A stretch of DNA of 64,000 nt, taken from NCBI GenBank assembly GCA_965223545.1, contig OZ245006.1, positions 6,656,001-6,720,000 on the forward strand. Direction: 5' to 3'. Made by a program: the position numbers and the translations under genes. Every line of letters starts with the position of its first letter. Position 1 is the stretch's first letter. Of the stretch, positions 52,951 to 57,956 are shown one piece after another. A model generated the notes under the pieces. That model searched no databases. It worked only from the letters and a program-made list of their open reading frames with translations, and was not told where the DNA came from. The stretch is from Planctomycetota bacterium (GTDB lineage: Bacteria; Planctomycetota; UBA1135; UBA2386).

Positions 52951-55674
52951 TCAGCGCGACCGGGGCCGGCGCGACGGGTCGCCGCGCTCGCGGCGGGCTT
53001 GGGCGCGGCGCTCGGCATGCGCTGCGGCTTCGCGCTCCGCCTGCTGCACACCGGCGTCATCGCCGAGCGCCCTGCAGGCGGCGGCCAGCGGGCGGTAGAT
53101 TCGGTCCCATGGTGCGGCGCGCCACGCCAGGTGGGGGCGCAGTGCGGTGAGGTCGGCGGCGCGGGCGAGTGCCGCCGTCAGGCGCTCGCGCGCAAGGGCG
53201 GGGTCGCCGCGCTCGAGGTCGTTGGCGGCGGCCGTGTGCAGCGCCTCGATCAGCCGCCAGAGCTGGTGCACCGCGCTGGGATACTCCTGCCACAGCGGCT
53301 CGAGCACATCGATGGCGGCGGCAAAATCGACATCCGCGCGCTGGCGCAGGTCGGTGGCCGTCGCGGCGTCGGCGGTGGCGCTGGCTTGCTCGGTGAGCAG
53401 TCGGCCGTGCAACAACCGCGCGCGGCCGTACAGCTCGCTGCAGCGCGGCAATGCCCGGTAGCGGTCGCGCAGCTGCCGGGCGCGATCGACCGCAGTCCTG
53501 CTGGCCGCGAGCGCCTCGTCGAGCAGCTGCTGATGGCTTGCCAGCATCAGATACGACTCGATCAGCTCGCATTCGTGATCGGGGATGTCCGGGTGGTTGG
53601 CGGCGAGCTCGTCCAAGGTGCGGATCGCGGTCGCGGCCTGCTCGCCGGCGGCGAGCACCTCGCCCGAGCGAAACAGCATGCGCGCCAGCAGTTGGCGGCT
53701 GCGCGCTTCCAGCATGCGGAACGCCGGGTTGTCCGGCTCGGCTTCGAGCAGGCCCTCGGCGAGCTGCAGGGCGCGCTCGTGCGGTGCCCCCATGCCGTGG
53801 CGCGGCTGGCGGTCGCGCCGGGCCCGCGGCAGCGTGTCGGGCAGGCGGCCGATGCGCTGCAACGCACCCAGATCGTTGAGCACCGCCGCCAGCTCGTAGC
53901 GGCCCTGCAGCTCTTCGGCGCCGCCGGTGGCTGCCAACAGCAGCCGCTCGAGCTGGTGGATCGCGGCGCGGAACTCCTCGCGCGCGCCAGAGCGGTCGCC
54001 GCGGTCCTCGAGCACGTGGCCGAGGCTGCGGCGGACGACCGCGCTGGCCAGCGCCGCCGCCGGGTCGCCGGCGTCTTGCCCGTGGATTGCCAGCGCGCGG
54101 CGGTAGGCGGTCTCGGCGTCGTCGTTGTGCCCGAGCCAGCGGTGGATGTCGCCGACCCGGCGCAGTGCGCGCGCGGTGTCCTGGTGCAGGCGTACATTGC
54201 CGTCGTTGTGCAGCGCAAACGCGTCGTAGAACGTGCAGAGACGTTCCAGTAGCTCGAGCTCGCGCGCAGAGACCACCGGTACCACCGGCACCGTTTCGCT
54301 CGCGTCGTCGAGCATCACCAATCCCCGGTCGCGGCCGGCGATCGCGTCGAACAGGTCGTCGAAGGCCTGCAGCGACAAGTCGAGGTTTTGTTCGGCGCGT
54401 GCGGTGGCGACGCGCTGACCGCGCAGACTGTTCTGCACCCGGTCGTTGGCGTCGCGCTCGCGTCGCAGGGATGCGTCGGCTTGTAGATAGGCGAGCCAAC
54501 CGACGGCGGCGGCGGTCAGCGTCGCGCCGATCGCAGTCGCCGCGCTGATCGCCTGGCCCGGGTTGCGTCGCGTCCAGCGCCATGCGCGTTCGAAGGCGCC
54601 GACGCGCCGCGCGCGCACGGGGACGCCGTCGAGGAAGCGCTGCAGATCGTCGGCCAACGCCGCGCAATCGGGATACCGGTGGGCCGCGTCGATCGACGTG
54701 GCGCGGGCGATCACGGTGCGCAGATCGCGGGGTGTTGCCGGGCGCTGCGCTGCTAGGTCGGGCACCCCCTGCGCACTGATCTGCTTGACCAGCGCGCCGC
54801 GGCCGCTGGCATGGAACGCGCGTTGACCGGTCAACAGCTCGAACAGCGTCACGCCGAGGCCGTACTGGTCGCTGCGCGCGTCGAAGCGGCCATCGAGAAC
54901 CTCCGGCGCGGCGTAGGCGAGCGAGCCGACGAAGTCGCGCGTGCGGGTCACCGCCTGCTGGTCGAGCAGCTTGCCGATGCCGAAGTCGGTGATCCAAACC
55001 GTGCCGTGGGGATCGAGCAACAGGTTGGCGGGCTTGACGTCGCGGTGCAGGACGCCCTGGGCATGGGCGTGGTGCAGGGCGCGCGCGGCTTGCACACCGA
55101 TGCGCGCGACCTCGTGCTCGAGCGCGCCGGCGCCGGTGGGGCGGCGGTCGGCGTAGTGGTCGAGCGCGCCGCCGTCGACGCGCTGCATGGCGTAGTAGTG
55201 CACGCCGTGGTCGAAGCCGGTGCCGTAGATCGGCACGATGTTGGCGTGGTGCAGGCGCGAGGCGATCTCGGCCTCGCGCTGAAAGCGCTCGACTTGTGCC
55301 GCCTCGGCGAACGCCGACGGCGGCAGCACCTTGACCGCGACACGGCGCGACAGCGACACCTGTACCGCGTCGTAGACGATGCCCATGCCACCGCGGCCGA
55401 TCTCGTCGAGCAGCCGGAAGTCGCCCAGGCGTTCGACCCGCTTCCAGTGTGGCCGGCTGAGGCGCTCCACCTTGAGCGCCTCCATCGCTGCGATCGGGGA
55501 CAGGAGCTCGCGCAGCGCTGCGCGGTACCGCGGGTGCCGATCGGCGAACTGGGTGGCGGTGAGCTGCTCGCCATCGCGCAGCTGGTCGGTGAATGCATCC
55601 ACCAGTGCCGCCAGCTCGGCTTCGGTGTCTGCCGCGGCGGGCTCCGGTCCTGGCGTTGCTCTCTCGTCGGTCAC
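52951..55674 (-). CDS. Hanks-type Ser/Thr kinase with TM and a helical/TPR-like C-terminus
   Basis: IGRGGMG, VAVK, HRDVKPAN, DFG, APE, W.RRNP; GTGA overlap with the ECF stop. Confidence 0.93.
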   Translation of the reverse strand: MTDERATPGPEPAAADTEAELAALVDAFTDQLRDGEQLTATQFADRHPRYRAALRELLSPIAAMEALKVERLSRPHWKRVERLGDFRLLDEIGRGGMGIVYDAVQVSLSRRVAVKVLPPSAFAEAAQVERFQREAEIASRLHHANIVPIYGTGFDHGVHYYAMQRVDGGALDHYADRRPTGAGALEHEVARIGVQAARALHHAHAQGVLHRDVKPANLLLDPHGTVWITDFGIGKLLDQQAVTRTRDFVGSLAYAAPEVLDGRFDARSDQYGLGVTLFELLTGQRAFHASGRGALVKQISAQGVPDLAAQRPATPRDLRTVIARATSIDAAHRYPDCAALADDLQRFLDGVPVRARRVGAFERAWRWTRRNPGQAISAATAIGATLTAAAVGWLAYLQADASLRRERDANDRVQNSLRGQRVATARAEQNLDLSLQAFDDLFDAIAGRDRGLVMLDDASETVPVVPVVSARELELLERLCTFYDAFALHNDGNVRLHQDTARALRRVGDIHRWLGHNDDAETAYRRALAIHGQDAGDPAAALASAVVRRSLGHVLEDRGDRSGAREEFRAAIHQLERLLLAATGGAEELQGRYELAAVLNDLGALQRIGRLPDTLPRARRDRQPRHGMGAPHERALQLAEGLLEAEPDNPAFRMLEARSRQLLARMLFRSGEVLAAGEQAATAIRTLDELAANHPDIPDHECELIESYLMLASHQQLLDEALAASRTAVDRARQLRDRYRALPRCSELYGRARLLHGRLLTEQASATADAATATDLRQRADVDFAAAIDVLEPLWQEYPSAVHQLWRLIEALHTAAANDLERGDPALARERLTAALARAADLTALRPHLAWRAAPWDRIYRPLAAACRALGDDAGVQQAEREAAAHAERRAQARRERGDPSRRPRSR

Positions 55675-56336
55675 GCGTCGGGCTCGAAGCCGGGAACGCC
55701 ATCCAGCGCCGCGCGCAGCCGGCGCAGCGCGCGCACGTAGCGGTTGGTCGACGCCGCCTTGTGCAGGCCCAGGACCTCGGCGGCTTGGTTGTTGGTGAGC
55801 TCTTCGAAATGACGCAGCACCAGGATCTCGCGGTCGGTCTCCGACAGCTCCTCGAGCACGAGCTGCAGGCGCTCGATCATCTCGGCGCGCACCGCGGCGC
55901 GCGTCGGCGTGGTCTGCGCGCCGAACAGCTGGTCGGCGAGGTGCGCCGCGGTGGCGTCGGGGCCGGGGCCGGCGATCTTGCGCTCGGCGCCGACACCGCG
56001 CTTGGCGGCGTGCAGGTGGTGTCGGGTGACGTCGACCAACGTCTGCATCGCGATGCCCCGCAGCCAGACGAACGTCGAGGCGTCGTTCTTGGCGAAGTGC
56101 TGCAGCCGCTGGGCGGCGGCGAAGAACGTGTCCTGCAGCACGTCCTCGGCGTCGACGCGGCCGTTGAGCCGGGGATCCATCCGCAGCCGAATCACGCGCG
56201 TCAAGCGCTCACGGAAGCGGTCGAGGACCGTGCCGAGGGCTTGCTCGTCCGCCGCCCGCAGGCGGTGGAGCGTGTCCGGGTCCACATCCGGGTCTTCGGT
56301 CGCCGGCGGTCTGGTTTCACTCACCAAGGGGAGCAT
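55671..56336 (-). CDS. ECF sigma-70 factor (planctomycete kinase-associated type)
   Basis: RL...IRLRMDPRL.GRVDAEDVLQD, WLR.IA, DREIL.LRHFEELTN, RYVRALRRL; start at 56336 or 56324. Confidence 0.9.
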   Translation of the reverse strand: MLPLVSETRPPATEDPDVDPDTLHRLRAADEQALGTVLDRFRERLTRVIRLRMDPRLNGRVDAEDVLQDTFFAAAQRLQHFAKNDASTFVWLRGIAMQTLVDVTRHHLHAAKRGVGAERKIAGPGPDATAAHLADQLFGAQTTPTRAAVRAEMIERLQLVLEELSETDREILVLRHFEELTNNQAAEVLGLHKAASTNRYVRALRRLRAALDGVPGFEPDA

Positions 56337-56371: not shown

Positions 56372-56728
56372 TCACCGGCGCCGGCGCGCATCGCCACGGC
56401 GACGGTCGCCACGGCGACGGTCGCCACGGCGATCCGGCGCCTTCCGCCCCGGGCCACCGCGCTTGCCGCGCTCGCCGCGGTTGCCGCGCTCGCCGCGGTG
56501 GTTGCGCCGGCCGCGTTCGCGCGCCGTGTCCCGGCGCTCGGCGCGGGCTGCGGCGAATTCCGTGGCGGTGATCACGCCGTCGCCGTTGGTGTCGATGCGC
56601 TGGAACGCGGCCGCCACGCGGTCGCGCGCGGCGTCGCCGCGGCGGCTCTTGCCGCGGTCGCCATCGGCTTGGGCGACGAGTGTCGCCGCCGCGCAGAGAA
56701 AGACGGAGATGCAGTGAATGAGTCGCAT
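56372..56728 (-). CDS. Small secreted EF-hand protein with an Arg/Gly-rich repetitive tail
   Basis: Signal peptide, FQRIDTNGDGVITATEF, RGE and RRGD repeats. Confidence 0.75.
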   Translation of the reverse strand: MRLIHCISVFLCAAATLVAQADGDRGKSRRGDAARDRVAAAFQRIDTNGDGVITATEFAAARAERRDTARERGRRNHRGERGNRGERGKRGGPGRKAPDRRGDRRRGDRRRGDARRRR

Positions 56729-56843
56729 GCCACGACAAACGCGCGCGCCGGCCGGCCGGAAACGCCCGACTCGGGGTTTCTCGGGCAACGACGGCGTATG
56801 GTGGCGATGTTTGCGTATCGGTTACAAATCGAAAGGACTTCGC

Positions 56844-57956
56844 ATGCGCATCACGGTGGTTTCGGCGGTCTTGCTGTGTGGTGTCGCTCCCGTGGCGGCG
56901 CAGCGCGGCGGCGACCCCGGCGCGGTTTGGCAGCACTTGGCCGAGCGTTACGACGCCGATGGCGACGGCGTCATCACGGCGGAGGAGCACGGCCGCGGCG
57001 AGCGGCAGTTCCGCAACCTCGACCGCGACGGCGATGGAACGATCACCGCCGCCGACTTCGAGCGGCGTGGACGGCGGCCGGGCCGCGGCGCGCGCGGCGA
57101 ACGCGGCGAGCGCCCCGCTCCGCGCGAGGTCGCGCGCCGGTTGGGCGACTTGTTCGGTTCGTTCCTCAACGTGGACGGTGAGCCCGGGCTGTCGGCGGTG
57201 GACTGGCAGCAGCTGCGCGAGCGCTTGGCGCCGGACGAGAACGGCGTGGTCGGCGACGGCGGCGTCGCCGCCGTGCTCGGCCTCGACGGCAAGACGCGCA
57301 TGGCGCGCATGGGCGGCTCGCTCAAGCCGCTGCTGGATCACGATGGAGATGGCGAGCTGCACGTCGACGACCTCGACGCCGTGTTCGCCGCGTTGGATCG
57401 CGACGGCGACGGCCTGATCGAGCAGGGCGACGAGATCGACATGCCGCCAGGGGTTGGCGAGATGGCGCCCGACTTCAGCCTGCCGTTCGCCGGCGACGCC
57501 GACCGCGAGTTGCGCCTGTCGAGCCATCGCGGCGAACGGCCGGTGGTGTTGATCTTCGGCTCCTACACTTGACCCCCGTTCCGCGCGTCAGCCGGTCGGC
57601 TGACAGAGCTGTACGAAGCCTACAAGGATCGCGTCGCGTTCTACCTGGTCTACATCCGCGAGGCGCACGCCCTCGACAGCCGTTCGCCGATGGCGTTCGG
57701 CATGGTCGAGGACCCGGTCGACGACGGTGAGCGTTCTGCCGTGGCGAAGCGGTGCGTCGACGACCTGGACTTGCCGATGCCGGCCTTGATCGACCGCATC
57801 GACGACGCGGTCAACCAGGCCTACAAGGGCTGGCCCGACCGGCTGTACTTGGTCGATCGCGAGGGCAAGATCGCCTACGCCGGCGGCCGCGGACCGTTCT
57901 TCTTCTCGACGGACGCGTTGGAGGAGCGGCTGCAGGCGGTGGTCGGGGAGCAGTAG
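56844..57956 (+). CDS. Secreted multi-EF-hand iodothyronine-deiodinase-like selenoprotein (Sec at TGA 57570-57572)
   Basis: ORFs 56718-57572 and 57690-57956 are in frame; readthrough gives RPVVLIFGSYT-U-PPFR...FYLVYIREAH...D.IDD.VN.AY.GWPDRLY. Confidence 0.88.
57587..57604 (+). promoter_or_regulatory. Putative bacterial SECIS hairpin
   Basis: GTCAGCC-GGTC-GGCTGAC; 21 nt separate the TGA from the loop, which begins with GG. Confidence 0.7.

Follow-up and report, generated by a model that had tools for sequence, protein, structure and literature searches.

Deiodinase-like selenoproteins of bacteria have been on record since 2005, when they were described together with cysteine (Cys) homologs and with a bacterial selenocysteine insertion sequence (SECIS), whose named feature in the accessible text is a G in the small apical loop (PMC1088965). 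A redox role was suggested there, because thyroid hormones are not expected in bacteria. The available text of a 2021 report adds a deiodinase-like selenoprotein fused to an EF-hand domain and notes extra conserved Cys residues of unclear function (PMC9402790), and the family is also listed, with the motif UxxC, in the accessible portions of PMC9312934 and PMC13188914. According to the available part of a 2026 review, the functions of the group are still largely unknown, and our literature search, which covered few subscription papers, returned no report of an activity for any bacterial deiodinase-like protein. Here, we describe a member of this group encoded at 56844–57956 of the + strand in a stretch of 64,000 nucleotides (the window; positions 6,656,001 to 6,720,000 of contig OZ245006.1, assembly GCA_965223545.1) from a Planctomycetota bacterium. 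An earlier note on this DNA had proposed a hidden, exported EF-hand enzyme, interrupted by an in-frame UGA codon, that acts as a selenocysteine (Sec)-dependent dehalogenase or oxidoreductase. We find that the locus is a real, well-supported and unannotated selenoprotein gene.

With the prokaryotic deiodinase-like family, as far as the accessible text of PMC1088965 describes it, the gene product shares the PF00837 domain, the Sec/Cys pair and a SECIS with G in the small apical loop; it differs from that family in its predicted export and in the presence of EF-hands. The combination of a PF00837-type domain and an EF-hand (PF13499) in one selenoprotein is likewise found in the fusion of PMC9402790, which the available text describes in a single sentence without signal peptide, SECIS or mechanism, and with which our protein was compared by text only. 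A literature search for deiodinase-like proteins and EF-hands together returned this report only. As both the family and the fusion with EF-hands are already published, the novelty implied by the earlier note does not hold, whereas its statement that bacterial deiodinase-like selenoproteins exist agrees with the 2005 report. The UxxC motif given for the family is replaced here by U-P-P-F, with Phe at +3 in 19/19 close loci of the TGA type, and the only Cys of the mature protein, Cys304, is distant. Since the family is listed by Pfam match, we read this mismatch as a subtype difference. The best NCBIfam match is NF038285 (deiodinase_rel, 347 positions), which is also matched by 42/42 aligned homologs. 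With 214.9 bits the gene product remains below the cut-off of 250, which makes it a sister subgroup rather than a scored member of NF038285. Positions 37–129 of this model match the EF-hand region of the gene and of its paralog L009, that is, the model covers both parts of the protein. The paralog (G000:C1:1874257-1875255, +) is 49% identical, has six EF-hand-like loops and shares both FGSYT-U-PPF and the hairpin with a GGUC loop. The features that concern the reading of the UGA are the following.

56844–57956, + strand: whole gene with UGA read as Sec, ATG to TAG, 370 codons plus TAG
56832–56837, + strand: Shine-Dalgarno-like AAAGGA, 6 nt 5' of the ATG, by sequence inspection
57570–57572, + strand: in-frame TGA, predicted Sec243 in S-Y-T-U-P-P-F, by frame and homolog alignment
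57587–57604, + strand: SECIS-like hairpin with 7-bp stem and GGUC loop at 57594–57597, by covariation and conservation

The two adjacent open reading frames (ORFs) seen in the earlier note indeed form a single frame of 370 codons, whose sole internal stop is the TGA at 57570–57572 (codon 243 of 370). At third codon positions the fraction of G or C amounts to 0.90 up to the TGA, to 0.85 in the 39 codons that separate the TGA from the next ATG, and to 0.94 in the remainder, confirming that the intervening codons are open and rich in GC at this position, and the motifs FGSYT-U-PPF, YIREAH and WPDRLY are all present in the read-through translation. In public protein sets, fragments of 242 and 88 amino acids stand as separate products, which demonstrates that standard annotation has split, and hence missed, the gene, as anticipated. 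The start in the public gene call is the ATG at 56844. The upstream ATG at 56718 was rejected, as it is used in no public call and would bury the signal peptide. The region of the TGA is identical to the letter in contigs of three out of four public runs, which belong to one study and are possibly the source data, so that this identity argues solely against a sequencing error. A scan for promoters and terminators revealed nothing exceeding chance.

The genome encodes the Sec machinery that the earlier note had asked for: selA (464 bits), selB (318), selD (346) and a tRNA-Sec (74) with the anticodon UCA all score above curated cut-offs, and selD carries an in-frame TGA of its own. Decoding of UGA as Trp was considered and rejected, because TGA terminates 2535 of 3395 long coding-like ORFs and is thus the main stop codon of this genome. 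The search of 40 relatives yielded 26 other matches with E<=1e-30, of which 25 contained a single TGA; the remaining match spans residues 261–368 only and therefore lies beyond the site. The TGA is present at FGSxT*PPF in all 18 distinct loci that were read as well as in L044 (19/19), and selA was detected in 41/41 genomes. Across the phylum, 128 of 136 PF00837 matches have a TGA, and the family occurs in 102 of 301 genomes (both tallied by hand); inspection of the position in 29 of 30 fetched phylum loci gave 28 TGA and one TGC. Among 119 aligned database proteins the Sec column is occupied by Cys in 109, by Trp in four and by Ser in one, with a gap in five (P0007, in which the anchor pattern had no match, was left out of the column counts). 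The four Trp residues may reflect translation of TGA under another code by gene callers. A scan of contigs with patterns for Cys codons returned mostly Cys forms and is no gauge of Sec frequency. Thus, homologs with Cys or TGA at the site, as called for in the earlier note, are abundant, and together with the machinery they support recoding into one product of 370 amino acids. On this strong genomic support, the UGA at 57570–57572 is almost certainly read as Sec. The closest database protein, P0001 (63% identical), has G-S-Y-T-S-Q-P-F at the site; real loss, an assembly error or a gene-caller artefact are candidate causes of this Ser.

The 7-bp hairpin with a GGUC loop reported 3' of the TGA was found at 57587–57604, and it covaries. 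It agrees with the SECIS description in the accessible text of PMC1088965, being a stem-loop just 3' of the UGA with a G in a small loop, and the earlier note likened it to the SECIS of E. coli fdhF, whose loop has GGUC as well. The folding energy of the hairpin is ordinary (z of -1.29, +0.57 and -1.24 for three stretches), and the support for it comes from conservation and covariation instead. In 18 aligned loci pairing is observed in 91.3% of 126 cells, as compared to 15–52% in slid controls, and four of the seven pairs have undergone changes on both sides. The closing C-G pair is converted to U-A in three loci, all from one five-member clade, with a concomitant change of Arg to Gln. The Gly codon of the loop is GGT in 16/16 loci having Gly there, as compared to 13.6% of the Gly codons of the genome. 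A hairpin rule, demanding a loop that begins with G at offsets 21–30 and a perfect stem of at least six pairs, was satisfied after 30 of 47 TGA loci (29 of 46 when L030 and L134, which are the same place, are counted once) and in 0 of 26 loci with a Cys codon (TGY), counts for which 73 of 92 loci were parsed and 19 were not. By comparison, the rule is satisfied at 5.9% of 135,849 genomic TGA triplets, which is the background, and at 8 of the 17 further candidate Sec sites of the genome. What speaks against giving these counts full weight is that the rule was fixed after this locus had been seen and that the loci are related rather than independent. A strict genome scan for TGA followed by a GGT loop, which yielded 168 matches among 135,852 TGA triplets and four past coding filters, was too narrow and was therefore replaced by broader scans.

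Downstream of residue 198, the read-through product is a deiodinase-like domain with the following features.

57435–57953, + strand: deiodinase-like thioredoxin-fold domain, residues about 198–370, by PF00837 and structure matches
57651–57668, + strand: YIREAH, in which Tyr270, Glu273 and His275 correspond to Dio3 Tyr197, Glu200 and His202; start of the deiodinase-type loop
57714–57716, + strand: Pro291 in place of the His found at Dio3 position 219, by alignment
57753–57755, + strand: Cys304, candidate resolving Cys, the only Cys of the mature protein, by alignment to glutathione peroxidases
57831–57842, + strand: WPDR, corresponding to Dio3 Tyr257-Phe258-Glu259-Arg260, with Trp330 also on the catalytic Trp of glutathione peroxidases, by alignments

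The domain matches PF00837 with 79.2 bits (cut-off 27) and PF00578 with 40.9 bits (cut-off 26), and the only structures matched by sequence are mouse Dio2 and Dio3 (PDB 9H48 and 4TR3). In searches with the full-length predicted model (predicted local distance difference test 86.5; predicted template modelling score, pTM, 0.82), Dio2 and Dio3 ranked first by Foldseek as well as by VIA-align (4TR4: Z 22.2, root-mean-square deviation (rmsd) 4.6, 181 aligned), followed by AhpE, Bcp1, DsbE and ResA with Z of 17.6–18.3 (VIA-align). The kinship with animal deiodinases, which had been deduced from motifs, is thus substantiated. Besides the fold, the protein shares with Dio2/Dio3 the motifs S-x-T-U-P-P-F and Tyr-x-x-Glu-Ala-His. 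Judged by residue roles taken from the accessible text of PMC12025243 and PMC7506546, Ser167, Thr169, the Pro-Pro pair, Tyr197, Glu200, His202, Arg225, Arg260 and Arg275 of Dio3 are kept, while Trp stands for Tyr257 and Asp for Glu259. Tyr270, Glu273 and His275 are invariant in 138/138 aligned sequences; the Arg275 column is variable, with Arg in 13 of 19 close loci and in 6 of 119 proteins. In contrast to the animal enzymes, the protein has no membrane anchor beyond the signal peptide, carries EF-hands and has a Cys in helix alpha-D. Moreover, four residues of Dio3 are not kept: Cys168 is replaced by Tyr241, Trp207 by Arg280, His219 by Pro291 and Cys239 by Pro313. There is no His in the loop past His275, and the place of His219 is taken by Pro291, or by Val292 in an ungapped alignment to Dio3. 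The His219 column has Pro in 19/19 close TGA loci; a His was seen there in three of 29 loci from the phylum and in two of 119 proteins. The missing residues weaken the claim of this protein to be a deiodinase. However, dehalogenation would still be possible, as Dio2 likewise lacks the proximal Cys (Cys168) and as Dio3 His219 is possibly structural rather than catalytic, according to the available text of PMC7506546.

After signal cleavage the mature protein would contain one Sec and one Cys, namely Cys304. Among the TGA loci 44 of 47, and among the Cys loci 18 of 26, have a Cys at or beside this column. In a profile alignment (probability 95%, E 3.8e-8), Cys304 fell on the second conserved Cys of 19 bacterial glutathione peroxidases (GPx) from related genomes, and Trp330 on the catalytic Trp of these enzymes; the representatives of the two profiles are 17% identical. 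The second conserved Cys is the resolving Cys of thioredoxin-dependent GPx (PMC10084747, accessible part), and the helix that carries it is equivalent to Dio3 alpha-D (PMC7506546, accessible part). The protein thus has an active residue and a second Cys in register with thioredoxin-dependent GPx or atypical 2-Cys peroxiredoxins such as poplar GPX5, as well as Trp330; in contrast to these, the Gln and Asn of the tetrad are not kept and the deiodinase loop is present. We therefore speak of a working likeness, not of membership; the agreement of Cys304 with the resolving Cys in the 'Cys block' helix of GPx is one of position only. PF00255 is not among the Pfam matches, and the catalytic domain contains neither C-x-x-C nor U-x-x-C. 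One GPx of a relative, L091 (G013:C246:7997-8320), has an in-frame TGA; the 19 others that were read have Cys.

Upstream of the catalytic domain lie a signal peptide and an EF-hand lobe.

56844–56900, + strand: probable cleavable signal peptide, residues 1–19 (V-A-A/Q, cleaved at the slash), no twin-arginine, contains Cys12, by hydropathy and inspection
56952–57056, + strand: EF-hand pair 1, loops at residues 37–48 and 60–71, the best conserved pair, by Pfam and alignment
57168–57266, + strand: EF-hand pair 2, residues 109–120 and 130–141, degenerate, by alignment and inspection
57336–57431, + strand: EF-hand pair 3, residues 165–176 and 185–196, by Pfam and alignment

Hydropathy and inspection by eye place a hydrophobic stretch at residues 3–19, which makes the previously proposed signal peptide probable. 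A hydrophobic N-terminus is shared by 16/16 aligned TGA-type proteins with an intact start, including this one, and three of the 16 have a lipobox-like Cys. Judged from these N-termini, export of the selenoprotein to the periplasm or the cell surface is probable. The five EF-hand-like loops quoted earlier were all recovered, starting at residues 37, 60, 109, 165 and 185. Four of them have D-x-D-x-D-G and conform at ligand positions 1, 3, 5 and 12 (Glu12 in one, Asp12 in three); the loop at 109 is degenerate, and an additional sixth site at 130–141 is even more so. Pair 2 is more canonical in the paralog and in several homologs. Pfam EF-hand_1 passes in three stretches, and the EF-hand pair PF13499 scores 34.9 bits (cut-off 30). 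Helix-loop-helix arrangements are seen in both predicted models, that of the full-length protein and that of the EF-hand region alone. A fold search with the latter region gave weak calmodulin matches, which reflect local likeness only (E ~3e-4, TM 0.2–0.36). Matches to Lanmodulin (28 bits, cut-off 135) and XopAW (26 bits, cut-off 120) were dismissed as generic EF-hand likeness. Across 13 aligned homologs, the ligands of pair 1 vary little or not at all. TGA-type homologs have between zero and about six EF-hands; in many homologs, of the Sec as well as the Cys type, EF-hands are absent, and others carry TPR or PF06439 domains in their stead. Several tree branches have members with EF-hands, and the position of these can also be C-terminal to the catalytic domain. 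This distribution suggests that the EF-hand lobe has an accessory role.

The homologs further include P0025, P0069, P0109, P0061 and P0112, which start just past the expected Sec site and are, for this reason, probably truncated selenoproteins; three of them are fused to PF06439 and two have C-terminal EF-hands. In P0036, P0049, L045-L047, L050 and L051, which are of the Cys form, the active residue is followed by P-N-F or P-K-F; TPR domains are present in the proteins of this group, and the loci are titled Bryobacteraceae or Terriglobales. P0006, P0007, P0012, P0014, P0016, P0018, P0019 and P0024, which mostly bear EF-hands, have a C-x-x-C that ends at the active site, and P0023, P0041, P0054 and seven others have the animal-like S-C-T-C.

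As to function, we give an even chance to an envelope reductase that acts on peroxides or oxidised thiols through Sec243 and Cys304. In this scenario, SelB and tRNA-Sec would read the UGA as Sec, guided by the GGUC hairpin within the coding sequence, and the signal peptide would direct the protein to the periplasm or the cell surface. The C-terminal domain, which has the deiodinase version of a peroxiredoxin-like thioredoxin fold, could use Sec243 to attack an oxidised envelope substrate, that is a peroxide, an oxidised protein or a small-molecule thiol. Cys304 would then resolve the adduct to an intramolecular selenenyl-sulfide, as in thioredoxin-dependent GPx, and a thioredoxin/DsbD-type relay of the envelope, for which a candidate donor is encoded, may re-reduce the enzyme. 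The EF-hand lobe would bind Ca2+ and most likely stabilise or position the enzyme as an optional add-on that is not needed for the chemistry.

Several observations weigh against this proposal. The peroxiredoxin (AhpC/TSA) family has the motif P-x-x-x-T/S-x-x-C, of which the Ser at -3 is present and the Pro at -7 is absent here (Leu236). The deiodinase fold is clearly nearer than the best peroxiredoxin (Z 18.3, rmsd 1.9, 143 aligned), and the invariant Tyr-x-x-Glu-Ala-His is not obviously needed by a generic reductase. The places of the GPx Gln and Asn are taken by Glu289 and Pro331, so that the tetrad is not kept, and a partner Cys is missing from both tested positions in 8 of 26 Cys loci and in 3 of 47 TGA loci. 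All ten homologs (10/10) with a Cys two positions ahead of the active site lack a Cys like Cys304, which would favour the resolving role, but these ten form one clade, and the mutual exclusion of the proximal and the alpha-D Cys therefore represents one event of little weight. In poplar GPX5, acidic residues at -7 and -3 from the Cys are said to unwind the helix (PMC7506546, accessible part); the corresponding residues are Arg297 and Ala301 here. Finally, the flanking genes give no functional clue, as they are shared only within two small groups of relatives.

Three other explanations were weighed against the envelope reductase. That the TGA is a real stop, giving two products of 242 and 88 amino acids or a pseudogene, would agree with the public gene calls, which list exactly these pieces, and with TGA being the commonest stop of the genome. 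Adjacent genes in one frame do occur: a genome scan with a codon model found 77 TGA codons flanked by coding-like codons, many of them simply between adjacent genes, beside 103 TAG and four TAA cases. However, a stop would cut a single thioredoxin fold at its active-site residue, the TGA recurs at the same codon in all 19 close loci, the 39 codons past it are conserved coding sequence, and the hairpin tracks TGA rather than Cys codons, which together make this explanation highly improbable. A true reductive dehalogenase would have a deiodinase-type pocket, where Sec243 removes iodine or bromine from a halogenated phenol or tyrosine derivative and the resulting selenenyl halide is resolved by Cys304. 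This alternative is easier to entertain, since Dio2 and Dio3 are the only structures found by sequence and the top-ranked folds, and since the Dio3 residues named above as kept are shared, with the exchanges at Tyr257 and Glu259; the loss of the proximal Cys also in Dio2 and the possibly structural His219 (PMC7506546, available text) blunt part of the objection. Nevertheless, we consider it unlikely. His219 is replaced by Pro, Trp207, Cys168 and Cys239 have no counterpart here, and Arg is not constant in the Arg275 column. The authors of the 2005 study argued for a redox role in the accessible text (PMC1088965). Moreover, the occurrence of the family in a third of the searched phylum genomes, with fusions to TPR and further domains, suits a general role in the envelope. 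A literature search for a precedent of a bacterial thiol-based debrominase returned unrelated papers only. Thus, of the earlier interpretation, Sec recoding, a single product, kinship to deiodinases, EF-hands, probable export and the missed annotation stand, whereas the dehalogenase part is weakened by the four absent residues of the animal site and by the GPx-like resolving Cys found instead.

The EF-hands raise the alternative of a redox regulator or disulfide isomerase switched by Ca2+, in which Ca2+ bound to the lobe gates the active site or the binding of targets. The near-invariance of the pair 1 ligands in 13 homologs and the recurrence of EF-hands in several tree branches, also C-terminal to the domain, are in line with such a switch, and the pTM rises from 0.52 for the isolated EF-hand region to 0.82 for the full-length model, a hint at packing between the parts, although this gap is weak evidence, the two models having been built on different alignments. 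On the other hand, EF-hands are lacking in many homologs of either the Sec or the Cys type, the middle pair of the present protein is degenerate, and the C-x-x-C or U-x-x-C typical of isomerases is absent. Moreover, periplasmic Ca2+ tends to track the medium, so that tight Ca2+ sites would stay filled. We therefore regard a Ca2+ switch as doubtful, ranking below the dehalogenase. The envelope reductase remains the reading that we prefer.

The vicinity of the gene was compared over about 1.5 kb of flanks (4 kb for L044), and no flanking gene is common to the 19 loci; the exceptions are one upstream gene shared by L023, L024 and L026 and another one shared by L027 and L028. In the window, a divergent gene at 56372–56725 (-) encodes a small secreted protein that has one EF-hand and ends in a tail rich in Arg and Gly, and beyond it, on the same strand, follow an extracytoplasmic function (ECF) sigma factor (about 55671–56300) and a Ser/Thr kinase with TPR (52951–55674).

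Beside SelD and the paralog, the genome contains 16 further in-frame TGA sites in 15 genes (loci L108-L122), which were picked by eye for a redox-like context. They include a VPGUxxT double selenoprotein and an ArsC-like selenoprotein, which score above NCBIfam cut-offs, two AhpD-like candidates, and Prx-, TlpA- and thioredoxin-like candidates, most of which appear by eye to start with a signal peptide. A DsbD-like gene (G000:C1:4306330-4308645) encodes DsbD_N, DsbD_TM and a thioredoxin domain with a TGA in U-x-x-C. Taken with the exported thioredoxin-fold candidates, it points to a reducing relay of the envelope that would be able to recharge the enzyme, a link that we infer. L118 (G000:C1:2579810-2580805, -) and L119 (G000:C1:6246386-6247582, -) encode exported-looking proteins with L-G-D-x-D-x-x-x-(C)-U contexts and have no match in Pfam or NCBIfam; L119 has a 7-bp GGUC hairpin resembling that of our gene, and the two are possibly an unlisted selenoprotein family. 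In-frame TGA codons were also seen in an FG-GAP repeat protein with W-U-C (L110, G000:C1:492560-493981, +), a DUF3179 protein with W-U-P (L111, G000:C1:7189340-7190482, -) and a carboxypeptidase-regulatory-like repeat protein with Y-U-P-S-C (L122, G000:C1:3792637-3794940, -). Two observations concern other loci: a GTPase match, probably EF-Tu, by a tRNA cluster (L003, G000:C1:889915-891150, -) has one TAA within the matched span, and at G000:C1:2326454-2326528 ARAGORN lists a tRNA whose anticodon, of two bases, is given as undetermined.

Taken together, this kind of protein is already known, and the finding itself will not surprise a selenoprotein specialist; what is added here is the proposal of a resolving-Cys mechanism and the breadth of the family in the phylum. 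The gene and its relatives are split by standard callers, though the family occurs in 102 of 301 phylum genomes and nearly always with TGA. Being probably soluble, with one Sec, one Cys and natural Cys homologs, this member lends itself readily to tests on the function of deiodinase relatives outside animals. A bolder conjecture, which we hold to be rather improbable, is that of an exported, selenium-dependent dehalogenase of iodo- and bromo-aromatics that is tuned by Ca2+ and recharged by a largely selenium-based relay of Sec-DsbD and Sec-thioredoxins. If it were true, such a dehalogenase would have kept the chemistry from which animal deiodinases arose, together with a peroxidase-type resolving Cys that was lost in animals, and such an enzyme would operate in roughly one third of the phylum.

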